A stretch of DNA of 64,000 nt from NCBI GenBank assembly GCA_944386675.1, contig CALXBY010000003.1, positions 17,689 to 81,688 of the forward strand, written 5' to 3'. This DNA comes from an uncultured Clostridia bacterium (GTDB lineage Bacteria; Bacillota; Clostridia; TANB77; CAG-508). Below the pieces are notes generated by a model. The model searched no databases and was not told where the DNA came from. It saw nothing but the letters and a program-made list of their open reading frames with translations. Shown here in pieces: positions 581-61,485 of the stretch (position 1 is the first letter of the stretch; every line of letters starts with the position of its first letter). A program made the translations under genes and the position numbers.

Positions 581-703
581 TAGGGACGTGCCAAATCGTT
601 TCAAAATGAAACCAAAAGGGACAGACCCCATTACTTATTAATCTCTTAAACATTTAGGTCTGTCCCTTTTGGTTTCATTTTGAAACGATTTGGCACGTCC
701 CTA
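581..703. mobile_element. MITE-like element, family 1, minimal copy: two perfect 45-bp inverted arms (GGGACGTGCCAAATCGTTTCAAAATGAAACCAAAAGGGACAGACC) around a 29-bp spacer, flanked by TA
   Basis: Arms 583-627 and 657-701 are exact reverse complements; TA at 581-582 and 702-703; lies exactly between prmC stop (704) and whiA RBS. Confidence 0.8.
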
Positions 704-6720: not shown

Positions 6721-6735
6721 TTTTCCTCCTTTTGT

Positions 6736-6953
6736 CCAATTGAGAGATTTTGAGGGATTTTGGGGACGGACTCATTTTTCCCTTTTTTAGTTTAAAAAAT
6801 CGATTATATATAAGTTCTGTATATGTAAATTTAACTTAAAAAAACAAGTTCGTTATACATAAAACCATCTAATGATATTATGTTTCTATACTTATTAATA
6901 CAAAAAGGGAAAAATGAGTCCGTCCCCAAAATCCCTCAAAATGCCTCAATTGG
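6736..6953. mobile_element. MITE-like element, family 3: ~47-bp near-perfect terminal inverted repeats (CCAATTGAG[a/g]GATTTTGAGGGATTTTGGGGACGGACTCATTTTTCCC) around a 123-bp AT-rich core
   Basis: 6736-6782 versus reverse complement of 6907-6953 differ only at 6745-6748 (GAGAGATT vs GAGGCATT); sits between ligA stop (6958) and the RBS of the 84-aa ORF. Confidence 0.75.
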
Positions 6954-6957
6954 ATAT

Positions 6958-12234: not shown

Positions 12235-12330
12235 TCCTTTCTGAATGTTTTATAATTATCATTCTCTCTAAAATATGTACTCTATTTTAAGCATTATTTA
12301 TTATAAGATTCTCCATCTTTATTACCAAAG

Positions 12331-12364
12331 AATTGCCAAAATGGCCCGTCCCCTTTGGCAACTT
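12331..12364. repeat. family-2 palindromic repeat GTTGCCAAAATGGCCCGTCCCCTTTGGCAAC (REP-like hairpin), 2 bp after the stop of the UDP-sugar pyrophosphorylase gene
   Basis: 8-bp stem TTGCCAAA/TTTGGCAA with GGCCCGTCCCC loop; identical copies at 54173, 54243 and 61452. Confidence 0.8.
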
Positions 12365-12365
12365 T

Positions 12366-34560: not shown

Positions 34561-35379
34561 TTATTTGATATAAATTGATGGGTCCTCTTGTACTGAATTT
34601 TTTAATATTTCAAAATGTAAATGTGGTTCATCTGCTATTTCAAATACAGCACTATTACCAACTGTTCCTATAGATTGTCCTTTTTCTACTGTTTCACCCT
34701 CAACTACAAATTCAGATGTTAATAAATTAGAATATACTGTTTGATATACATCATCATGTTCTATAACAATTGTTAAACCATATCTTGGGTCATTCTTTAT
34801 TGATTTCACAATACCTGCTTCTGCTGCTTTTACGACTGTTGTTTTATCTGCTTTTATATCAATTCCATTATGTGTCACCCATTCTTCTAAAGTTTCTGAA
34901 TATACAAGATTATCTTGGGCAAATTCTCTTACAATTTCTCCTTCAACTGGTTTTTGAAAACTTAATTCTTTTACTTCTTGTGTTTCGGTTTGATTACTAG
35001 TTGTATTTTGAGTATTAGTTGTAACATTATTTGTATTTACACTACTTGTTTCTATGTCATTATTTAAAGTTGTATTTTGTATCTCTTCTACTTGTGTATT
35101 TTGTTTTTCAAGCGTTTCTTGGCTTTCTTCTACCGTTTTTCCTATGTCTGTACTTGCACTTTCTGTTTCCTCTTCAACATCGTCTGTTTCACCAATTATA
35201 TTAGTCATTTGTTCTAATGACATAGTTTCATCTTTTACATCATCATTAATTTTTTGACTATATAATAATAATGAAATAATAATGATAGCCACAACAATTG
35301 CTCCCATAACAACATAAGAAATTATTTTATCATTTATATTTTTGTCCCCAACATTTTTTAAATTCATACTTCTTTTCAT
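34561..35379 (-). CDS. M23/LytM-family metallopeptidase with N-terminal membrane anchor (sporulation-cluster context; SpoIIQ-like position but catalytic His retained)
   Basis: start at Met21 with AGGAGG RBS; C-terminal HLHFEI zinc-binding motif. Confidence 0.75.
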   Translation of the reverse strand: MKRSMNLKNVGDKNINDKIISYVVMGAIVVAIIIISLLLYSQKINDDVKDETMSLEQMTNIIGETDDVEEETESASTDIGKTVEESQETLEKQNTQVEEIQNTTLNNDIETSSVNTNNVTTNTQNTTSNQTETQEVKELSFQKPVEGEIVREFAQDNLVYSETLEEWVTHNGIDIKADKTTVVKAAEAGIVKSIKNDPRYGLTIVIEHDDVYQTVYSNLLTSEFVVEGETVEKGQSIGTVGNSAVFEIADEPHLHFEILKNSVQEDPSIYIK

Positions 35380-35466
35380 ATAATCCTCCTTAAATACTTT
35401 GTTATTACAAGTATTTCCTTTTTTAAAAAGATTATACATTTTTTAAAATAATTTTTTGATTATTAT

Positions 35467-35676
35467 AAAATCGTGATTTTTCTAAAGACATACTATATAT
35501 TTTATGAAATTACGAATGTGAATGAAATTATATTAGAAATTATTAAGATAGCTAATAGGAGAATCTCAAACTTGCTTTGAGAGGTGCCTATTAGCTATCT
35601 TTAAAATTTCTTTATGATGTAATGTTAACCGAGTAATAAATAAAATATATAGTATGTCTTTAGAAAAATCACGATT
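35467..35676. mobile_element. MITE-like element with 32-bp perfect terminal inverted repeats (AATCGTGATTTTTCTAAAGACATACTATATAT) and an internal ~48-bp hairpin; right arm overlaps the spoIID stop codon
   Basis: 35467-35500 versus reverse complement of 35645-35676; internal ~150 bp homologous (inverted) to 56904-57139 inside family-1 copy B, including the CTAATAGGAGAATCTCAAA...TTTGAGAGGTGCCTATTAG hairpin. Confidence 0.7.
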
Positions 35677-36682
35677 ACAGAGAATTAACTTCCTTAATCT
35701 CTACTCCAACATAAAAATGTTGAATAATATCTTCTGCTGTACTTCCACTTTTTGCCATACTATCTGCTCCTGTTTGACTCATACCAACACCATGACCATA
35801 TCCTTTTACCGTAAATTTTATTTTTCCTTCATTTTTTGATATATCAAAATTTGTAGCTCGTAATCCAAATATATTTCTAGCTTCTGTTCCCGAAATTTCA
35901 TGATTTCCGAATTTTATTGTTTTTACTCTTCCACTACTTGTATATTCTAATATTTTAATATCATCATCATTATTAAAATCGATTTGAATATCTGTGTATT
36001 TTGCTTTTAATTTTTCTAAAAGTTCTTCATTTGTTAACTCTACTTCTGAATTGTATTGAGAATATGCATCTTCTCCTGATGTTTCTACTACCTGGAGATA
36101 TGGCATATTGCTTCCCCCTCCCCAAACATCTACTGGTAATTCCGTTTTTCCACCACTATTAGAATGAAAAAATGCATTAATTGGTTGATTATTATATGTT
36201 ATTATTTTTCCTTTTGTTTCATTTACACATTCTTCTATTTTGCTCCATTTTGCTTCTTTATCTCCATCCCATCTTGCTAATCTATCCTCTTTTGAAATCC
36301 ATGCTTGACAGCATGTAGAATCATCACAAACATCCGCATTTTCATGTTTTTTATTGTTAACTTTATAAATTGTATATGTTCTTGCGACAATTGCTTGTGC
36401 TTTTAATGCTTCCTTTTCGAAATCTACTGGCATTTCTGCTGATACCACATTGCAAAGATAGTTATCTAAAGCTACTTCCTCTACTGTATTTGTATCTGTA
36501 TGTAATAATTTTATGGTTCCATATTGATTATATATATATTCACTTTCTGAATGTTCTTCTTTAATTTCCACTATTCCATCATCTGTCTCTGAAGATGTTT
36601 GCATATTACTTTTTGTTAATAATGCTGGTAAAAAAAAGCAAATAAACAAAAAGGCAAAAAAATAGATAAAAACTTTTCGCAA
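35675..36682 (-). CDS. spoIID: stage II sporulation protein D (SpoIID, lytic transglycosylase-like)
   Basis: 335 aa; signal peptide, SpoIID/LytB domain (AQAIVARTYT...). Confidence 0.8.
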   Translation of the reverse strand: MRKVFIYFFAFLFICFFLPALLTKSNMQTSSETDDGIVEIKEEHSESEYIYNQYGTIKLLHTDTNTVEEVALDNYLCNVVSAEMPVDFEKEALKAQAIVARTYTIYKVNNKKHENADVCDDSTCCQAWISKEDRLARWDGDKEAKWSKIEECVNETKGKIITYNNQPINAFFHSNSGGKTELPVDVWGGGSNMPYLQVVETSGEDAYSQYNSEVELTNEELLEKLKAKYTDIQIDFNNDDDIKILEYTSSGRVKTIKFGNHEISGTEARNIFGLRATNFDISKNEGKIKFTVKGYGHGVGMSQTGADSMAKSGSTAEDIIQHFYVGVEIKEVNSL

Positions 36683-38314: not shown

Positions 38315-38428
38315 TATAGCCTCCTTTAAAATTCTTCTTGTATTATATTTCTTTTTCCAATATTTTCCAAGAGTAAAAAATAAGAAGTTTTGTCGTTTTA
38401 TAAGAAGTTTTCGACAAATGAAACAATT

Positions 38429-38491
38429 GGGACGTGTCAAATCATTTCAAAACGAAACAAAAAGGACAGGCATCCTGCCTGTCCCTTTTGG
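38429..38491. repeat. family-1 element remnant: one diverged arm (GGGACGTGTCAAATCATTTCAAAACGAAACAAAAAGGACAGG) plus the first 16 nt of the opposite arm
   Basis: alignment to the 45-bp family-1 arm; lies between GH13 stop (38520) and spoIIAA start. Confidence 0.7.
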
Positions 38492-38519: not shown

Positions 38520-40412
38520 TTATTTTTTATCTTTTCTTAAAATGAGTGTTCCATATTCTCCTACTTTATCTTTTGTACTATTTTCGGTAAATACAACTTC
38601 ATAATTCCTAAAATTGTCATTAAAAATAACTTTGTCGGTTCTATTGGAATATAAAACTATATTTCCTTTCTCTGAATACATTTCTAATAGCATGCATCCT
38701 TCATCAATCTCTCTCAGCCTTGGTTCGCCATCACCTAAAATATCTATATTACTCTTTCGATAATGGTTTAATTTTGTTACATAAGTTTGCATATCCAGCT
38801 TAGGATTCTCCCAATCCATATCTTTTCGGCAAAATGGATCTTTATATCCCATGACACAATTCTCCGTTCCCTGAAGCATACTGGGATTTCCTGGCAAAGT
38901 ATAAAAGATTGGTAATGCATTCTTTTCATTCCTTCTTGCCACAATTCTCTGCTCTTCCGGTAATTGATCATGACTTGCCGAATAACTTCTAAAGCCAAAT
39001 ATCTCAAACTCAGCGTCTATATGCCTCCAAGGACCTTCAATATCATCCAGTTTTTTATATGGGTCTGGATTCATGAGTTCTCCAACCAAAGATGTCATCA
39101 AGGTCACCGTATCATGCGTAGATATAACATTCATCAGAATATCTGACACAGATTTTGGATATTCTCTATAAACTTTTTCAAAGTTATATCGAAAATGCTC
39201 ATGCAATCCCCATCTCACCCAACGGATAATCGCATCTCTTATTGGATAATTCATCAATGAATTTGCCTGTCCATCAAAGATTTGTGGATTTTCTCGCTCG
39301 GTTGCAATGTCCCACATCTCATTAATGAAAATAATCTGTGGATAATCCTTTTGAATATCTTTTACAATTGCCAAAAGAAATTCTTTGGGTAATATATCTC
39401 CCAAGTCCATTCTAAAGGCATCTACTCCTACACTGATATATTTCTTTAGGATTTTAATGCATTCCTTTTGCACTTCTGGATTTTGTTTATTGAGTTCTGG
39501 CATATTGGTATAACCATACCATGTAACTGGTTTTCCATCTTTGAAAATGTAAAATTTTCTATAAGGAGAATTTACATCAGATATTGCTGATTTAAAATAT
39601 TCATGTTCATCTGATGTATGGTTAAATGCCATATCGCATATAACCTTTATTCCCAGTTTCTTTGCTTCTATGCAAAGTTCCTCCAAATCTTTCCAAGTCC
39701 CCAGCATAGGATCTATCTGCCAGAAATCTTCTGCCTCATAATGATGATAATTTCTACTTTTACAGATTGGATTCATATATATTGCATTAAATCCAAGTGC
39801 TTTTATATATGGCAATTTTTCTTTTATGCCTTGTAAATTACCACCATAAAAATATTCGTTCCGATAGATTCCATCAGAATCTGGTTTCCAGTCTGGCATT
39901 CTATCATTCCAATCTTTGTTTTTTCTTCCTTCAACTGGAATAATCCCATTACTACCAATTGCAAACCTATCTGGTATGATTTGATAAATCATCCGTCCTT
40001 TCCATTCTGGATATTCTTTCAAAGTCGCATCTTTTACTTCAAGTTTCCAGCAGTACTCATTTGGATATGCTTTTGTGTTTTTCTGTGTTGTCAAAAATTC
40101 TTCATTTTGATATACATAGTACAGTTGTCCCTCTATAAAGAGAGTAAAGTAGAACCAGTATATCCCTGATTTACCAAGTGAAAATTCAGCCAAATAAACA
40201 CTTCTGGTTATACCTGTTTCTCTTTCCTCTTTTCCTTCGTACGGTATGCTCACTTTTTTCACTATCCTATCAAATTGATAGAACATTATCTGAAGTTTTT
40301 CTACAAATCCTTTATCCAGGATTTTTACTTGAACTTTTACCTTGTTTTTGGTTGTACATTTTTCTGGCTTTATAAGCCGGAATTCAAAATACTCTTCTCT
40401 CCTTTTTAACAT
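38520..40412 (-). CDS. GH13 alpha-amylase-family glycosidase (neopullulanase/cyclomaltodextrinase-like, intracellular)
   Basis: 630 aa; GH13 regions II-IV GFRMDLGD, EMWD, SHDT; no signal peptide. Confidence 0.85.
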   Translation of the reverse strand: MLKRREEYFEFRLIKPEKCTTKNKVKVQVKILDKGFVEKLQIMFYQFDRIVKKVSIPYEGKEERETGITRSVYLAEFSLGKSGIYWFYFTLFIEGQLYYVYQNEEFLTTQKNTKAYPNEYCWKLEVKDATLKEYPEWKGRMIYQIIPDRFAIGSNGIIPVEGRKNKDWNDRMPDWKPDSDGIYRNEYFYGGNLQGIKEKLPYIKALGFNAIYMNPICKSRNYHHYEAEDFWQIDPMLGTWKDLEELCIEAKKLGIKVICDMAFNHTSDEHEYFKSAISDVNSPYRKFYIFKDGKPVTWYGYTNMPELNKQNPEVQKECIKILKKYISVGVDAFRMDLGDILPKEFLLAIVKDIQKDYPQIIFINEMWDIATERENPQIFDGQANSLMNYPIRDAIIRWVRWGLHEHFRYNFEKVYREYPKSVSDILMNVISTHDTVTLMTSLVGELMNPDPYKKLDDIEGPWRHIDAEFEIFGFRSYSASHDQLPEEQRIVARRNEKNALPIFYTLPGNPSMLQGTENCVMGYKDPFCRKDMDWENPKLDMQTYVTKLNHYRKSNIDILGDGEPRLREIDEGCMLLEMYSEKGNIVLYSNRTDKVIFNDNFRNYEVVFTENSTKDKVGEYGTLILRKDKK

Positions 40413-40634
40413 TTTTTCTCCATCCTTTCTATTTATAATACATGAATTTTTATCTATCGTAAAAAGCCATTTGGCTTATAAGTTCACTTTACTATTTTCC
40501 TTTCCATTTGTCAATGTCATTTTCTGTAAATCCTTGCTATTTCTTTATACTTTTTTAATAAATTTGTAAATAAAAATCTTAGCTTTATATAAAAAATAAA
40601 CCTTAGATACAATAATTATAGAAATTGTATCTAA

Positions 40635-40681
40635 GGTCTGTCCCTTTTGGTATCATTTTGAAACGATTTGGCACGTCCCTA
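40635..40681. repeat. family-1 solo right arm (45 bp, 43/45 identical to consensus) + TA, ending 4 bp before the ytfJ stop codon
   Basis: GGTCTGTCCCTTTTGGTATCATTTTGAAACGATTTGGCACGTCCC TA. Confidence 0.8.
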
Positions 40682-40685
40682 TTGT

Positions 40686-45791: not shown

Positions 45792-47373
45792 TTATTTATA
45801 CCATGTTTCTATGCCACAAAATGGGTTGAACCAATTTGAGTTGATTTCTCCTACTAATTCTGTATTATATGCAATAGTATGTTTATTCGTATATAAACTA
45901 ATATATGGTATCTCTGTCTTATAAATTTCTGCAAGTCTTGTATAATCATTTTTTATAATTTGCTCATCCGTTGTATTTTTTACTTCATTCATTAAATTAG
46001 TAACTTCTTCATTATTATAATTTGCTAAATTTCCATCTCCAAAGAATAAAGACATATCTGGAGCTGGTGATAAATTCACACTACACAAAATCATATCGTA
46101 AGATTTATTTTGTATTGCAATATTGTACTGCTCATTAGAATATTGTTGAATATTGACTCTAATTCCTTGGTTAGCTAATTGTGTTCTTATATTTTCAGCT
46201 ACTGCAACTTGTGTACTATTTGATGCTTTTACAATTAAATTTAATTCAATTCTCCTTGTTCTATAATCTATTGTTTTTTGCCAATAACCATTTCTATAGC
46301 TCCATCCATTTTCTGATAATAATTGATTTGCTTGTTCAGGATTGTATCCAGAGCTTACATCTTGTTCTTGGTATACCCAATTCCCATAATCTAATGGGAA
46401 ACTTGACGTATAATATTTATTTTGAAAAACATCAGATACAATATTATTTTTATCTATTGAATAAGATATTGCTTTTCTTACTTCTTGATTAGCTAGTAAT
46501 TCATTTTGTGTATTTAAAACAATAAAATCATGTTCTCTTCCTTTTATTTCTTTTGTATTATATCCGAATAGTTCCTATATAATCTTGTATATTGGTATTA
46601 TTGGTACTTACTAAATCCACATTTCCCAATTTGAATGCATTATATAGCTCACCTACTGAGTCATATACATTAACATTTATTTTCTCTATCGTAATTTCTG
46701 TATCTCTCTCCCACCAATTTGTATTTTTTGTAAGCGTTATATAATTTTCTTGTACACTATCTACTTTATACTTTCCAGTTCCTACTGGTACAATTCCTGT
46801 ATTATAATAATCTTGTGTATCATAAAAAGTCTTAGATAATATAGGAAATGTTAGATAATATTCAAAAAATGGTACTTCTTGGTCTAAATACATTTTCACT
46901 GTATAGTCATCTACGATTTCTAACATTGTAACATGTTCCAGATTACTAGAATATATTGAAGAATTTTCTTTTAGCTTATCATATGTAAACTGAACATCTG
47001 CTGAAGTAAATCTTTCTCCATCTGACCATTTTACATTTTCTCTCAATTTTATAATATAGGTTGTTGCATCTTGTTTTGCCCATTCTGTAGCTAACATTGG
47101 TGTTGCTTTATAATCTGAAGATATATCAACTAATGGTTCATAAATTAATTTTGTTATATCTTGAACATTTTTATTAGTCGTTAATAATGGATTTAATGTA
47201 TCACACTGTGCAATTCCTAATCTGATTTCTTTTACAATTTCTTGATTTTCTGTAGCTATCGTTTCTTCTTCTGTTTCCCCATTATTTTCATTATTTCTTA
47301 TAACAAAAAAAGCAATAACTACAATTATAATAACAAATATAATAAATATATATTTAAAAATATTAGATTTCAT
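45792..47373 (-). pseudogene. ABC transporter family-5 (Opp/Dpp-like) substrate-binding protein, one frameshift near 46560-46575
   Basis: N-terminal 271-aa ORF (signal/TM, ...TPMLATEWAKQD...) stops at 46558; translation continues in another frame (GYNTKEIKGREHDFIVLNTQNE... to ...ETWYK) without further interruption. Confidence 0.6.
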
Positions 47374-47408: not shown

Positions 47409-47897
47409 TTATAATGCTCTAATTTCTTCTTCTGTTAAATTTGTTACCTCTTTTATAAATTCAATATCTGTACCTTTTTCCTTCATCTTTTTTGCAGTTT
47501 CTTTTATGCCTTCTTTTCTTCCTTCTTTTTTTCCTTCTTCTCTTCCTTCTTCTCTTCCTTCTCTCATTGCAAACCTTTTAATTGCTTTTTCATCCATAAT
47601 AGCTTTTTCTCTCAGTTCTGCAAGCTTTTGCATTTTTTCATCCTCGCTCATAATCTTTAATTTTTCTTTTGCTTCTTTCATTTCTTGATTATCTTTCATA
47701 TATTCCCCCACCTTTTCACTTTCTGGATTTTCTATGAAATATATCCATTTCATTAATTCTTCTTCTCTTTTTGCTCCTTTTATTCTATATACCTTTGGCA
47801 TTTCAATTATATGTATTTCTAAATCTTCTGTCAATATATGTTTTCGATATTTTTCCTCGATTATCTTCCATTTACTATGATATTCTAGCTCCTTCAA
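47409..47897 (-). pseudogene. C-terminal remnant of an Rpn-family (YhgA-like, transposase_31/PD-(D/E)XK) recombination-promoting nuclease; N-terminal nuclease domain absent
   Basis: ...EIHIIEMPKV... followed by the family-typical REGREEGREEGKKEGRKEGIKE repeat and ...LTEEEIRAL tail; only TTG start; upstream 370 bp is non-coding. Confidence 0.55.
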
Positions 47898-54150: not shown

Positions 54151-54172
54151 TTTTTGTTCCTCTTTTCTAAAA

Positions 54173-54203
54173 GTTGCCAAAAGGGACGGGCCATTTTGGC
54201 AAC
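54173..54203. repeat. family-2 palindromic repeat (inverted orientation) in the 5' leader of the EndoQ-like gene
   Basis: GTTGCCAAAAGGGACGGGCCATTTTGGCAAC. Confidence 0.8.
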
Positions 54204-54242
54204 TTTCTTTCTATAATTAACTAATAATTTTTCCTAAAAAAA

Positions 54243-54283
54243 ATTGCCATTTTAGCCCGTCCCCTTTGGCAACTTTTGGCAAC
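54243..54283. repeat. family-2 palindromic repeat with duplicated 3' half (TTTTGGCAAC x2), terminator-like for the 54289 gene
   Basis: TTGCCATTTTAGCCCGTCCCCTTTGGCAACTTTTGGCAAC followed by T7. Confidence 0.8.
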
Positions 54284-55724: not shown

Positions 55725-55748
55725 ATAATTATGTATTGGAGGATCACA

Positions 55749-56885
55749 TTGAAAATATTAAGTATAGAAACTTCTAGTAAAATATGTAGTGTCGCAATAT
55801 TAGAAGATAAAAATTTAGTAAAAAAAATTGAATTAAATAATGGATTAACACATTCAGAAACATTAATGCCACTCATTAAACAAATATTAAATGAAACAAA
55901 TTTAAATTTATCTGACATGAATTTACTCGTTTGTGATATTGGACCAGGTTCTTTTACTGGTATTCGAATTGGTGTTGCAACAGTAAAAGCTTTCACTGAT
56001 AGTTTGCAAATTCCTTCTGTTGGCATTAGTTCTCTTGAAGGATTAGCTTATAATATTAAAGATGATGGTCTTATCTGTAGTATTATCGATTGTAAAAACA
56101 ACAATTGTTATTATGCTTTATATGAATTAAAAAATGATACATATACATTATTAGAAGCACCTAAAGCAGATAGCGTCCAAAATTGTTTAAATTTTTTTAA
56201 TTATAAATATGCAAATTCTAAAATCACTTTTGTTGGAGATGGCTCTATTATTTACAAAAATGTAATAGAAAATATATCTTCAAACTTTGTTTTTGCTAAT
56301 ACAAATTTTCCAGATAATGAACTTAATATGATTGATGTATATAATTTAGGAATTGCTGGAATGAATAAATATACCAAATATGGAGCAGATGAAAATCTAC
56401 TACCTCTTTACTTAAAAAAGCCTCAAGCACAAAGACAGCTAGAAGAAAAAAATATTGTTATAAAAGATATGAACATTTCTGATTTAGAAAATTTAGACAT
56501 TTCTAAATTTGATGATTTCTGGAATATCGATATTTTAAAAGATGAATTAAATAGTGAAAATTCTAAATTTGTCTGTGCCAAACTAGAAAATACAGTTATT
56601 GGTTTTGCTGGTATTAAAATTATTTTAGACGAAGCTGATATTATGAATATAGCTGTTATGAAAAATTACAGAAGACAAGGTGTTGCAACTTTACTCCTAA
56701 ATCATATCTTTAATATTTGCAAAGAAAAAAATATTGAAACCCTAAATCTTGAAGTTAATGAAGAAAATTTTTCTGCCATCTCTTTATATCAAAAATTCGG
56801 TTTTAAAGAATGTGGCAGAAGAAAAAAATATTATGATAACAAATATGATGCGATTTTAGGGACGTGCCAAATCGTTTCAAAATGA
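55749..56885 (+). CDS. TsaB (t6A biosynthesis, inactive Kae1 paralogue) fused in one frame to a RimI-type GNAT acetyltransferase; last 9 codons and stop supplied by the family-1 repeat
   Basis: TTG start with GGAGG 6 nt upstream; N-term LKILSIETSS...CDIGPGSFTGIRIG (TsaB); C-term ...AGIKIILDEADIMNIAVMKNYRRQGVATLLL... (GNAT motif A); terminal ...AIL|GTCQIVSK* read from repeat sequence. Confidence 0.75.
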   Translation: MKILSIETSSKICSVAILEDKNLVKKIELNNGLTHSETLMPLIKQILNETNLNLSDMNLLVCDIGPGSFTGIRIGVATVKAFTDSLQIPSVGISSLEGLAYNIKDDGLICSIIDCKNNNCYYALYELKNDTYTLLEAPKADSVQNCLNFFNYKYANSKITFVGDGSIIYKNVIENISSNFVFANTNFPDNELNMIDVYNLGIAGMNKYTKYGADENLLPLYLKKPQAQRQLEEKNIVIKDMNISDLENLDISKFDDFWNIDILKDELNSENSKFVCAKLENTVIGFAGIKIILDEADIMNIAVMKNYRRQGVATLLLNHIFNICKEKNIETLNLEVNEENFSAISLYQKFGFKECGRRKKYYDNKYDAILGTCQIVSK

Positions 56886-57186
56886 GACCAAAAGGGACAG
56901 ACCTATTTATATAGAAGTATAACAAAATTAAAATATTATATTTCTTAATTTATTACATTCCTCGGCTAACATTGCATCATAAAGAAAAACTAAAAGTATC
57001 TAATAGGCACCGCTCAAAATCAAGTTTTGAGATTCTCCTATTAGATACTTTAATTTTTTCTAATATGATTTCATTTGCATTCGTCATTTTATAAATTAAG
57101 AAATATAATATTTTTAATAATTTTTCTTTCTTCTAAACAGGTCTGTCCCTTTTGGTCTCATTTTGAAACGATTTGGCACGTCCCTA
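56857..57186. mobile_element. MITE-like element, family 1, full copy (~330 bp): TA + 45-bp arm ... 236-bp core with internal hairpin ... 45-bp arm + TA
   Basis: arms 56859-56903 and 57140-57184 are reverse complements (one G/A difference from copy A); TA at 56857-58 and 57185-86; right end forms the TAG stop of the S4-domain gene. Confidence 0.85.
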
Positions 57187-57987
57187 AACGTATTTTTCAA
57201 TTAATACAACTGTTCTTCCACTTCTTGTTGTTCCTGTGAATTCTTTTATAATAAATCTGCCTTTTCCTCTAATTGTAATGACATCTCCTAATTTTACTGT
57301 TTTTGAATTTTTGGTTTCATTTTGTCCGTTTATAAATACTCTTTCTTGTGCAATAATTTCTGATGCTTTACTTCTAGAGGTTCTTGCTAAATCTGATACG
57401 ATGTTATCTAATCTTAGTGATGGTACTATGATTGTTACTTCTTCTATTTTTAGTTCTAATTTTCTAACATTTTGTATTTCTTCTATTTCGATTTTAGCAT
57501 TTTCAAATCTTGTAAGAGATGGTAATTGTGTTTTTAATACATCTGCAAATTCATTTAATGTTATAATGTCTGCCCCATCTTCTCCTACGATAATATCTCC
57601 TACTTTTTCTCTTTTTAATCCTAATTTCACAATTCCACCTAAATAGTTTCTATGTGAATATTTTCCTTTTTCTTCTTCTGGTAATATGATTCTTACTACT
57701 TTTAAAATTTTGTCATAGTTTTTTTCTAACATTTTATCATCAAATTTTTCAGGATATAGTATACATATTTTTCTTTCTGCATCTTCATATCCACCATATA
57801 GTTTATAATTTTTATATTGTAGTTTTCTTAAAAAATTTTCTACTAATGATACTTGATACATATCTAAAAAATCTGTATGCTCTATCTTTTCTCTTTTTGA
57901 TGATATTTCTATTTTATCTAATACTTGTGATAAGCATAATTTATCATCTTGTTTTTTATAGTCTTTTAATAAGTCTTGTTTATTCAT
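57184..57987 (-). CDS. YlmH-like S4-domain RNA-binding protein
   Basis: 267 aa; TDFLDMYQ N-terminal motif, C-terminal S4 fold (RLDNIVSDLARTSRSKASEII); 4-nt ATGA overlap with dxs. Confidence 0.6.
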   Translation of the reverse strand: MNKQDLLKDYKKQDDKLCLSQVLDKIEISSKREKIEHTDFLDMYQVSLVENFLRKLQYKNYKLYGGYEDAERKICILYPEKFDDKMLEKNYDKILKVVRIILPEEEKGKYSHRNYLGGIVKLGLKREKVGDIIVGEDGADIITLNEFADVLKTQLPSLTRFENAKIEIEEIQNVRKLELKIEEVTIIVPSLRLDNIVSDLARTSRSKASEIIAQERVFINGQNETKNSKTVKLGDVITIRGKGRFIIKEFTGTTRSGRTVVLIEKYV

Positions 57988-61424: not shown

Positions 61425-61451
61425 TATATAGAAAAACTTATTTTATTAAAG

Positions 61452-61482
61452 GTTGCCAAAATGGCCCGTCCCCTTTGGCAAC
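61452..61482. repeat. family-2 palindromic repeat, 3 bp after the enolase stop codon
   Basis: GTTGCCAAAATGGCCCGTCCCCTTTGGCAAC, identical to the copy at 12333. Confidence 0.85.
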
Positions 61483-61485
61483 TAA

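Follow-up and report, generated by a model that had tools for sequence, protein, structure and literature searches.

The 208-base palindrome lying directly after spoIID in the analysed window (the whole stretch of DNA, 64 kb), hereafter copy A, is probably, at a rough probability of 0.55, a member of a multi-copy, non-coding and non-autonomous foldback repeat family that spread through the chromosomes of gut Clostridia and that resembles REPINs and MITEs with their conservation pattern reversed. The centre is constant, and the arms differ among copy A, a second copy in the window (copy B) and more than 100 further copies. By an exact-pattern scan, among whose matches one locus (L073) was a false positive, the core occurs at at least 117 places in at least 42 species-representative genomes of uncultured Clostridia, with up to 12 core copies in one fragmented metagenome-assembled genome (MAG). 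All of the comparison sequences are metagenome assemblies, and the host lineage comprises AT-rich, spore-forming, uncultured gut Clostridia. The copies occupy unrelated intergenic contexts, mostly gene 3' ends, and the core is found inside many different palindromic contexts, often nested in REP-like GGGACG palindromes. Repeat copies were also seen to abut stop codons and even to supply them, including at sporulation genes, and the repeat family breaks MAG assemblies.

Copies A and B in the window

The perfect 37-nt arms of copy A enclose a spacer of 134 nt (Table 1). The first-pass annotation had described 32-bp perfect inverted repeats here, which are real, as the 32-mer AATCGTGATTTTTCTAAAGACATACTATATAT occurs exactly twice in the window (35469–35500 on the plus strand and 35645–35676 on the minus strand; 0.00 expected in shuffles), while its left coordinate was 2 nt too low and the full arms reach 37 nt. 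It had also placed the end of the right arm inside the spoIID stop codon, and this is confirmed: the arm terminates at 35676, and the TAA is the complement of 35675–35677. The outer ~20 nt of the arm are copy-specific, and the inner ~16 nt (ATACTATATATTTTAT) are similar to the family consensus. The folding energy of copy A is -91.6 kcal/mol on the plus strand (z = -15) and -82.8 kcal/mol on the minus strand.

The proposed homology between the interiors of copies A and B, in inverted orientation, holds at ~80–85% identity, well above the 60% that had been set as its floor. In a pairwise alignment, the interiors are continuously homologous from ~35501 to ~35640, and against the reverse complement of copy B the identity is 85% over 73 nt (35498–35570 versus 57026–57098) and 80% over 71 nt (35576–35646 versus 56948–57018). 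The 19-mer CTAATAGGAGAATCTCAAA is found solely at 35552–35570 (plus) and 57026–57044 (minus), with 0.01 occurrences expected. A covariance model of the core (R1), built from 105 copies, detected no third site in the window that scores comparably to copies A and B.

Copy B is enclosed by a family-1 shell (GGGACG-type) that is REP-like, its 47–48-nt units being 94–100% conserved and present as doublets and singlets. The left family-1 arm provides the final codons and the stop of the ORF at 55731–56885. Shell and core together show end-to-end homology with a copy in another species (L046), the flanks of the two being unrelated, and in copy B the composite of family-1 shell and core probably moves as a single unit. 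The TGACGAA of copy B was considered as a Spo0A box and rejected, because it is not conserved across copies. Two different sets of outer arms do enclose one shared module, as the first-pass annotation had recognized, while the arms of copy A do not represent a terminal inverted repeat type in the transposon sense, being the variable part of the family. Its idea of an independent structured element captured twice is likewise right about the element, which recurs in at least 42 species with co-varying helices, and too modest about the number, since a large repeat family has this module as its core.

Table 1. Coordinates of copy A, copy B and related features in the 64-kb window.
Feature	Position	Strand	Description
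Core-less family-1 hairpin	581–703	none	47-nt perfect arms, 29-nt loop
Copy A left arm	35469–35505	none	37 nt, perfect complement of right arm
Copy A core (~150 nt plus inner arm)	35491–35655	+	Covariance model R1, 157.6 bits; best minus-strand match 38.6 bits
Basal asymmetric internal loop, 5' strand (GAATGTGAATGAA)	35514–35526 (approximate)	+	Unpaired in the fold; family consensus CGAATGYGAWTGRA
Copy A apical hairpin	35552–35594	+	Stem CTAATAGG/CCTATTAG, inner stem TCTCAAA/TTTGAGA, loop CTTGC (35571–35575)
Basal asymmetric internal loop, 3' strand (TGTAATGTTAACCGA)	35618–35632 (approximate)	+	From fold and family alignment; consensus TGYAATGYYAGCCGAG
Copy A right arm	35640–35676	none	Final two bases supply the AA of spoIID's TAA
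spoIID gene	35675–36682	-	Pfam PF08486 on identical protein; stop codon overlapped by copy A
Diverged solo family-1 unit	38424–38473	none	70% identical
Solo family-1 unit	40634–40683	none	98% identical to reference copy
Decayed PD-(D/E)XK transposase remnant (PF12784)	47409–47897		Only transposase-like ORF (Pfam on 50 of 61 ORFs of the window)
Copy B left family-1 arm (GGGACG-type, REP-like), 48 nt	56857–56904	none	Encloses copy B
Copy B left intermediate arm	56913–56958	none	78% complementary to 57086–57131
Copy B conserved core	56939–57105	-	Model R1, 146.9 bits; pairwise alignment with copy A
Copy B right intermediate arm	57086–57131	none	Partner of 56913–56958
Copy B right family-1 arm	57140–57188	none	Overlaps stop of ORF 57184–57987 (-)

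Structure and polarity of the conserved core

The core is an oriented hairpin module of ~150 nt in which two loops are kept, an apical one (AGAA/GGUG) and a basal one (UGYRAAUGRAA opposite UGYAAUGYYAGCC). In copy A, the apical hairpin contains a 4 x 4 internal loop, in which AGAA (35560–35563) faces GGTG (35583–35586), and the 3' strand of the basal loop is non-complementary to its 5' strand. Both loops are also kept in distant relatives, where the apex has the form ..GG ARAAU ... AGG(G)UG CC... The 21 invariant apex bases in the 105-copy alignment are a consequence of the search pattern; in the independent check, a metagenome scan anchored solely on the basal loop, the exact apex was recovered in seven of the eight matches and an apex with one substitution in the eighth.

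The view of the element as a structured one is borne out across copies, which form a strong hairpin with compensatory, hairpin-maintaining changes at 23 of the 31 consensus pairs. In the core alignment, 96.7% of the cells at these pairs are paired, compared with 33–51% in a control with the partners slid, and 520 cells are changed on both sides, compared with 50–137 in the slid controls, with the reservation that shuffle statistics overstate the significance because the copies are related by descent.

The hairpin has a clear polarity. The pair adjoining the apical loop is U-A in 55 copies, U-G in 47 and C-G in two, with A-C in none, and over the paired columns G-U outnumbers A-C by 89 to 24. 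In 102 of 105 copies it is the AGGAGAAUCUC strand that forms the more stable fold, with a mean advantage of 8.6 kcal/mol under RNA parameters; the asymmetry is also present under DNA parameters, in 94 of 105 copies.

Arm evolution, core inversion and empty sites

The arms evolve in concert and are not conserved terminal inverted repeats of the transposase type. A syntenic relative, in which L137 and L140 share a contig, has the 135-nt core turned around with respect to its flanks and with just five internal substitutions, and the arms of L137 and of the window differ by two doubly compensated changes, so that orthologous copies differ in their arm ends. The core is flipped in seven other between-species orthologous pairs, whose perfect arm runs of 9–37 nt are below the usual assembly k-mers. 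A single core orientation is present at copy A in ~10 assemblies from different samples with SpoIID 98–100% identical. One strain, at L130, carries a template-switch product: the apex has turned into a perfect palindrome with the loop inverted, one arm being the exact complement of the other. Three assemblies (L132, L141 and L142) have a 144-nt internal deletion in common. Template switching between the arms of inverted repeats yields arm homogenisation and spacer inversion (PMC8604942; PMC8794818).

In relatives with SpoIID 96%, 86% and 84% identical, spoIID is separated from the M23 peptidase gene by just 43–82 nt, with neither the hairpin nor a pre-existing palindrome. Since these close relatives are without the entire 208-nt element, copy A was gained or lost as a unit. 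More pairs of filled and empty sites were found at other copies, and the empty sites could be precise deletions instead of the ancestral state. The promoter of the M23 gene lies outside the element, in empty and filled sites alike, and copy A at this locus is most likely a tolerated passenger, placed between the spoIID stop codon and that promoter. The copy-specific arms could be explained if the module had inserted into hairpins or terminators that were already present, within their loops; this was rejected for copy A, because the empty sites are palindrome-free, and is possible for the shell-nested copies. In a search for target-site duplications, the longest direct repeats flanking 113 copies had the same distribution as a shuffled control, with repeats of at least 5 nt at 21 copies against ~17.6 expected, in a test that the fuzzy element boundaries make insensitive to repeats of 2–3 nt. 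The junctions of copy A are ambiguous, with nothing but an imperfect TRTAAT readable.

Genomic context and searches for partners

By the strands of the flanking genes, the core is located in 29 convergent, 59 co-directional and five divergent contexts. Where the flanking genes are co-directional, the strand that folds better runs antisense to them by 44 to 15, and read-through would therefore mostly yield the other strand. The orientation bias follows the GC skew associated with replication, in that the strand that folds better is the C-rich one at 33 loci and the G-rich one at 15, which is consistent with a DNA-level process. As to whether transcription or replication causes the bias, splitting GC skew by plus- and minus-strand genes gave 33:15 with the replication skew and 16:8 in convergent contexts, which is suggestive and noisy.

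No recurrent partner gene was detected in the gene neighbourhoods within 3 kb on either side of ~125 copies. The only enrichment there is that of sporulation sigma factors, which reflects orthologous loci. Viral contigs (exact 19-mer) as well as PLSDB plasmids and INPHARED phages (blastn) gave no match to the module. A Pfam analysis of 50 of the 61 ORFs in the window revealed no mobilising enzyme except the decayed remnant in Table 1. Across ~0.9 Mb of related loci, neither a mobilising enzyme nor an autonomous element whose arms match came to light, no insertion-sequence-like ORF in these loci is bracketed by inverted shell units, and no gene for a RAYT (Y1 HUH transposase) was seen in the window or in the 8-kb loci.

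At gathering thresholds, Rfam 15 matched only 6S RNA (1684–1874) in the window; an E-value scan of 35400–35750 returned weak miRNA- or snoRNA-like hairpin noise only, and eight other loci with the module or its diverged relatives had zero matches at E ≤ 0.05. A terminator scan of 35250–35900 found zero terminator-like sites and no G+C-rich stem with a T run. Nothing conserved emerged from a promoter scan and a search of the arms for -10/-35 or sporulation-sigma boxes, and no conserved small ORF lies behind the two Shine-Dalgarno-like tracts, given a variable apical loop and differing frames. A literature search on nested MITEs in Clostridia found nothing relevant.

Proposed mechanism and alternative explanations

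In a foldback repeat family of this kind, the part shared by copies A and B would be the conserved core, whose helices may vary freely so long as they are paired, and the arms would be the variable part of the palindrome rather than sequence-specific transposase sites. Template switching or recombination from arm to arm may keep the arms paired, sometimes invert the core, and make deletions. The core hairpin is often found at the centre of a second palindromic repeat type, the REP-like GGGACG family 1. We infer that the family's spread may rely on a factor acting in trans, encoded at some other place, to which the core is recognisable when folded in single-stranded nucleic acid. If only copies with intact loops were propagated, this would account for loop conservation despite the drive to a perfect palindrome. 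Two points weigh against this reading: apart from the decayed remnant, the searches of the window and of ~0.9 Mb of related loci yielded no mobilising enzyme, and loops that are conserved while helices co-vary classically mark a functional RNA and not transposon ends.

It is possible, if somewhat unlikely, that the core is a multi-copy gene for a structured non-coding RNA, with DNA mobility merely its vehicle. The conserved loops would then be RNA motifs and the variable closing stems ordinary RNA covariation, and the product might be a two-bubble hairpin that binds a protein or resembles 6S RNA, or might present two Shine-Dalgarno-like purine tracts; being absent from Rfam, the RNA family would be undescribed. 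The conserved loops and co-varying helices, the preference for G-U over A-C in the paired columns and beside the apical loop, the greater stability of the AGGAGAAUCUC strand in nearly all copies, and model scores of ~157 bits on one strand versus ~39 on the other all speak for an RNA gene. Compensated changes can, however, be created by template switching without selection on an RNA (PMC8794818). G-T is also the least destabilising mismatch in DNA hairpins, and DNA parameters show the asymmetry as well. An RNA gene also fits poorly with the lack of a conserved promoter or terminator in or beside the element, with a better-folding strand that is mostly antisense to co-directional neighbours, and with a core that flips between close relatives, while perfect outer arms of 37–85 nt, nesting, deletions and presence/absence are the behaviour of a DNA repeat. 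A broader proposal, which we consider unlikely, is that the ~150-nt two-loop hairpin is an undescribed functional nucleic-acid module. It would represent a structured, multi-copy RNA of a new class, or else the part recognised by a new mobilisation system that is unlinked to a transposase and acts on folded single strands. It would ride in interchangeable palindromic shells throughout a lineage of uncultured gut Clostridia, and its orientation, which flips over evolutionary time, would have consequences for nearby genes or for replication.

The composite or recombining MITE, one of the two readings offered by the first-pass annotation, in which two classical families defined by terminal inverted repeats and derived from insertion sequences with DDE transposases swapped their interiors by recombination, appears improbable. 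The copies are indeed short AT-rich intergenic elements without coding capacity that recur many times, carry long terminal inverted repeats and show presence/absence polymorphism, but the conserved part is central, the termini are unconserved among copies and differ in a compensated fashion even between orthologous copies, target-site duplication does not rise above the control or beyond the imperfect TRTAAT of copy A, and no autonomous element with arms of this kind turned up in the window or in the ~0.9 Mb of related loci. Flipping of the asymmetric core by a site-specific recombinase, as a programmed inverton altering the expression of flanking genes, is very improbable. Both orientations exist at orthologous sites, the strong asymmetry of the core means that orientation could matter, and the 134 nt between 37-nt inverted repeats resemble the geometry of the known Clostridioides difficile switches. 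Yet the two orientations are seen between lineages only (the window versus L137 and the seven species pairs), with one orientation among near-identical strains; moreover, the arms lack a conserved recombinase site and the copies a linked recombinase gene, the partial apex conversion at L130 and the shared deletion point to replication errors instead of site-specific recombination, and the M23 promoter stays outside the element. That the palindrome separating spoIID from its neighbour is just an unusually long bidirectional terminator, or arose by chance, is hardly credible: the hairpin is very stable and sits directly 3' of a stop codon, as most copies sit at gene 3' ends, but it lacks a G+C-rich stem with a trailing T run, and as a sufficient explanation this is refuted by the expectation of 0.01 for the shared 19-mer, by the recurrence of the core and by close relatives that have the same gene pair without the element. 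A terminator side-effect of copy A is possible.

Comparison with known systems

Among known systems, the foldback family shares a number of features with REPINs and the REP-RAYT system, being short, non-coding, multi-copy and extragenic, forming a long hairpin with frequent compensatory changes, being inherited within a lineage over many species, and having neither a transposase inside the element nor an evident target duplication; family 1 in addition occurs in the window as two singlets beside a doublet (Table 1). REPINs are described mainly in Proteobacteria and cyanobacteria, whereas the hosts here are AT-rich Clostridia. In REPINs, the two ends (REP 16-mers) are conserved and the central spacer is variable (Bertels and Rainey, 2011; PMC3116915). 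The Clostridia family, in contrast, has a constant centre and free ends, those of copy A being copy-specific, and its core is clearly polar and keeps two asymmetric internal loops; no RAYT gene was seen in the window and the 8-kb loci.

Bacterial MITEs such as Correia/NEMIS in Neisseria, RUP and BOX in Streptococcus pneumoniae, ERIC, and bcr1 in the Bacillus cereus group are non-coding, intergenic, hairpin-capable elements of ~100–200 bp with strain-polymorphic insertion sites, often at gene 3' ends or co-transcribed, and BOX is modular. They are defined by conserved terminal repeats and typical target duplications (TA for Correia). The Clostridia repeat differs in its variable termini, internal conserved module and lack of a detectable duplication.

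The C. difficile flgB and cwpV switches, which are reportedly flipped by RecV, resemble copy A in that ~130–200 bp of a Clostridia genome are enclosed by short inverted repeats and occur in both orientations. Unlike these switches, the repeat shows no heterogeneity in the ~10 assemblies, is multi-copy, lies at gene 3' ends rather than in 5' leaders and has no associated recombinase. In its predicted fold, the element also has the overall geometry of 6S RNA, a hairpin of ~180–200 nt with an asymmetric bubble of roughly 13 x 15 nt and a long closing stem; it differs in being multi-copy and mobile and in not matching the Rfam 6S model, and the genome has its genuine 6S gene elsewhere in the window.

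Quasipalindrome mutagenesis by template switching (PMC8604942; PMC7202029; PMC8794818) parallels the arms that are perfectly paired yet copy-specific, the doubly compensated arm changes and inverted core in orthologous copies, and the arm conversion with loop inversion at L130. It accounts for palindrome upkeep and flips, and not for how the element reaches new loci or how two asymmetric loops escape homogenisation.

Implications

Short palindromic repeats are usually identified by their ends, since it is the ends that a transposase recognises. In this Clostridia family it is the centre that is constrained, and the ends vary freely, which is the reverse of ordinary transposon-derived repeats. 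Two asymmetric loops survive although replication errors push the element to a perfect palindrome, and therefore something reads the folded centre; this reader could be a mobilising protein with hairpin DNA as its substrate or, for an RNA, a partner in the cell. The family also provides clean natural data for studying how palindromes are kept up, inverted and deleted, and its covariance model deserves a place in public libraries, so that these loci are no longer taken as unannotated or as spurious ORFs.

Copy A and its counterpart in the window

The palindrome that follows the spoIID stop codon (copy A) carries a 32-mer with exactly two occurrences in the window, where shuffled sequences give 0 expected. 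The first-pass annotation was right that exact inverted repeats flank an interior here, but the left one begins at 35469 and the arms reach 37 nt around a spacer of 134 nt. The interior had also been described as homologous, in inverted orientation, to that of copy B, which lies within REP-like family-1 arms. Pairwise alignment bears this out: copy A matches the reverse complement of the copy B centre at 85% over 73 nt and 80% over 71 nt, unbroken from ~35501 to ~35640, compared with the ~60% identity below which the homology was to be given up. The 19-mer CTAATAGGAGAATCTCAAA is common to both copies and found nowhere else in the window (0.01 expected). The right arm, as annotated, ends inside the spoIID TAA. 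The spoIID gene has sigF, spoIIAB and spoIIAA as upstream neighbours and an M23 peptidase gene and ychF downstream, and GC content is ~27%.

Repeats and genes of the window discussed in the text
Feature	Coordinates	Strand	Remarks
Copy A 32-mer	35469–35500	+	
Copy A 32-mer	35645–35676	−	
Copy A perfect inverted repeat	35469–35505 / 35640–35676		
Copy A core (model)	35491–35655	+	
spoIID ORF	35675–36682	−	copy A right arm ends at 35676
Copy B family-1 arms	56857–56904 / 57140–57188		48 nt each; enclose core
Copy B core	56939–57105	−	
TsaD-family/GNAT fusion ORF	55731–56885	+	last nine codons and stop from copy B family-1 arm
YlmH-like ORF	57184–57987	−	stop overlapped by copy B family-1 arm
Family-1 hairpin	581–703		without core interior
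Solo family-1 unit	38424–38473		diverged
Solo family-1 unit	40634–40683		98% identical
Alpha-amylase gene	38520–40412	−	
GGGAC(G) palindromic repeat	6735–6954		53-nt arms (6735–6787 / 6902–6954), 96% complementary
GGGAC(G) palindromic repeat	12328–12365		
GGGAC(G) palindromic repeat	54169–54276		
GGGAC(G) palindromic repeat	61448–61485		
6S RNA gene	1684–1874	−	Rfam RF00013, 91.2 bits, full length
WhiA mechanical ORF	1–631	−	real start MSFSS at ~565
Short ORF	45792–46094		
SBP_bac_5 ORF	46558–47373		truncated
Transposase-like ORF	47409–47897	−	162-aa C-terminal remnant; PF12784, PD-(D/E)XK nuclease family transposase

Distribution and structure of the core

The shared interior (the core) had been suggested to be an independent structured module captured twice. 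It is structured, but occurs far more than twice: a scan in which each species was represented by a single genome returned at least 117 stretches in at least 42 assemblies for the pattern AGGAGAATCTC-N8-20-GAGNGGTGCCT. Among the matches listed, up to 12 fall in a single fragmented MAG, and all but one belong to AT-rich MAGs named uncultured Clostridia, Clostridium sp., Eubacteriales or Bacillota; where names or titles tell, the sources are chicken, mouse (MGBC) and human (Hadza) guts. Several matches lie 40–250 nt from contig ends, as expected of an assembly-breaking repeat. No family in Rfam 15 resembles the core, and no match was found in viral contigs, plasmids or phages.

Folding and covariance analysis across copies, proposed in the first-pass annotation, yielded a consensus hairpin of 31 pairs from 105 distinct copies, 23 of them with compensatory changes (e.g., GC 49/AU 40/UA 15 and GC 47/UA 40/AU 7). 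Paired cells amount to 96.7% on this structure, compared with 33–51% for partners slid by 1–3 columns and 76.8% in shuffles, and changes on both sides affect 520 cells versus 50–137 in the slid controls. Two internal loops remain unpaired and keep their sequence on both strands, an apical 4 × 4 loop (AGAA opposite GGUG) and a basal loop of ~13 × 15 nt (UGYRAAUGRAA opposite UGYAAUGYYAGCC). The 21 invariant apex bases are fixed by the design of the search pattern; a metagenome scan anchored only on the basal loop recovered the exact apex in 7 of 8 matches, with the remaining one off by 1 base, and the apex is present in 49 of 51 base-pattern matches in all comparison sequence. Since template switching can homogenise arms, covariation alone is no proof of selection on RNA. 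That two asymmetric loops have nonetheless persisted in dozens of species despite such homogenisation speaks for selection on them.

With a covariance model built from this alignment, copies A and B are the sole matches in the window, and their opposite strands score ~110 bits lower, so the core has a definite polarity. Diverged relatives found by the model keep the architecture and loop sequences and have changed stems (e.g., UAUGG-AAAAU-GUUCAAA...UUUGAA-AGGGUG-CCAUA). One locus, L022 (2695–2856), joins the standard basal half to another apical hairpin (AAAAUCUGCGGUGCGCCAGCAAUUUU), indicating that the core is itself modular, or nested.

Genomic setting and mobility

Core copies sit between housekeeping genes near stop codons, at a median core-to-stop distance of ~119 nt that places the element edge within a few tens of bases of the stop. 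Flanking genes are co-directional at 59 copies, convergent at 29 and divergent at 5, and no recurrent protein family adjoins the copies. In assemblies with 98–100% identical SpoIID, copy A is present; most of these assemblies have it intact, and three have lost part of it. At L121 (SpoIID 96%), L122 (86%) and L123–L126 (84%), the spoIID–M23 gap is 43–82 nt and contains neither the hairpin nor an older palindrome, and these loci conserve the M23 promoter region. Gain or precise loss therefore involved all 208 nt of the element, including its arms. Over L121 936–1700, spoIID matches the window at 99.8–100% identity up to ~95 nt from its stop codon; beyond this point, the remainder of spoIID and the gene downstream of it diverge strongly (~75%), which places a recombination breakpoint beside the insertion site. 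In other species, the exact spoIID position holds a related element with oppositely oriented core (L058) or unrelated hairpins (L127).

Copy B, comprising family-1 arms, intermediate arms and core, is homologous end to end with a locus of another species (L046), the flanks being unrelated, so the composite moves as one unit; its ends read T(A/G)GGGACGTGCC...GGCACGTCCCTA. Its arms overlap both convergent ORF stops, and one of these ORFs takes its last nine codons from them; the repeats thus remodel C-termini and donate stops, as at spoIID. In many species, the core is central to one to three nested GGGGACG-type palindromic shells, whose arms can be perfect over >85 nt, and one orthologous site carries the core alone in one species and core plus shell in another. 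The GGGAC(G) repeats of the window, further palindromic families that include one of sequence AAAAGTTGCCAAAAGGGACGGGCCATTTTGGCAAC, are built from the kinds of units that make up these shells in other species. Inverted shell units do not bracket any insertion-sequence-like gene. A Pfam run on 50 of the 61 window ORFs gave as relevant genes only a decayed PD-(D/E)XK transposase remnant and a housekeeping XerD-like recombinase. The remnant, the sole transposase-like ORF in the window, adjoins the truncated SBP_bac_5 ORF, of which the short ORF may be the rest; no link between the remnant and the hairpin repeats was found.

The solo family-1 units stand inverted on either side of the alpha-amylase gene, which is absent from L123–L127 (ytfJ directly to spoIIAA) and present in L001, L002 and L122; it is apparently an accessory gene that was acquired or lost between the family-1 repeats. 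The mechanical WhiA ORF is extended upstream through a family-1 arm (...GSVPFGFILKRFGTSLKG...); its real start puts the repeat 5 nt from the ribosome-binding site.

Arm maintenance and inversion

In a close relative, L137 and L140, orthologous to copy A and copy B respectively, lie 21.7 kb apart on one 67.7-kb contig. The flanks of the copy A orthologue agree in orientation with those of copy A, whereas its 135-nt core is inverted, with only five substitutions; its arms differ at two positions, both compensated on the opposite arm. Across species, orthologous filled sites (flanks 85–97% identical) comprise seven flipped and 13 unflipped pairs. Perfect arm runs at the flipped pairs are 9–37 nt, shorter than usual assembly k-mers, making assembly artefacts unlikely. 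Among near-identical strains, L130 (2485–2810) has the copy A apex as a perfect palindrome with inverted loop. A common 144-nt internal deletion (..CGGTTAAC|AAATCACG..) occurs in three independent assemblies from three samples (L132, L141, L142), and in L131 and L143 one arm has two substitutions that the other arm does not compensate. In published work, template switches between the arms of an inverted repeat homogenise these arms, invert spacers and turn quasi-palindromes into perfect ones (PMC8604942, PMC7202029, PMC8794818), which explains arms that are copy-specific yet perfect.

Nature of the element

The AGGAGAAUCUC strand folds better in 102 of 105 copies under RNA parameters, differing by −8.6 kcal/mol on average. 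Under DNA parameters, the corresponding values are 94 of 105 and −2.1 kcal/mol. Paired columns hold 89 G-U versus 24 A-C, and 47 of the G-U belong to the closing pair of the apical loop (U-A 55, U-G 47, C-G 2). A multi-copy structured RNA gene is a possible but clearly less probable reading; no conserved promoter or terminator accompanies the core copies, and the better-folding strand is antisense to flanking co-directional gene pairs by 44:15. When GC skew was divided into replication and transcription parts at 58 loci with genes on both strands, this strand was, in a noisy signal, the C-rich (lagging-sequence) one at 33 loci and the G-rich one at 15 (16:8 in convergent contexts, likewise noisy). 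This skew-linked bias fits a DNA-level explanation. Trinh and Sinden reportedly found in 1991 that asymmetric quasi-palindromes are deleted more readily if it is the lagging-strand template that forms the more stable hairpin; core flipping with differential loss would then produce an orientation bias along GC skew.

The composite or recombining MITEs suggested by one interior in two types of arms are improbable: conserved termini are absent, and target-site duplication in 113 copies is no better than in a shuffled control, with at most an imperfect TRTAAT readable at the copy A junctions. The flipped orthologues recall C. difficile-type invertible switches, yet a programmed inverton is still less probable, as population heterogeneity is lacking among about ten near-identical assemblies, none of them flipped at copy A. 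A terminator, which would have another anatomy and distribution, or a chance palindrome is scarcely credible. The overall geometry is similar to 6S RNA, whose genuine gene sits elsewhere. REPINs (features from PMC3116915) are the closest known system, sharing extragenic multi-copy hairpins, compensatory changes, singlets and doublets, lack of an internal transposase and lineage-long persistence; however, REPINs have conserved ends and a variable spacer, whereas the core family has a conserved centre and variable ends.

The best reading, with a probability of about 0.55, is a non-autonomous hairpin repeat, in which a trans-acting function would read the folded core and propagate the repeat, and template switching between the arms would keep them paired. 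The initial observation is real and more general than was visible from sequence alone: copy A belongs to a large, previously undescribed foldback-repeat family with a conserved structured core, and was either gained recently or retained specifically in this lineage.
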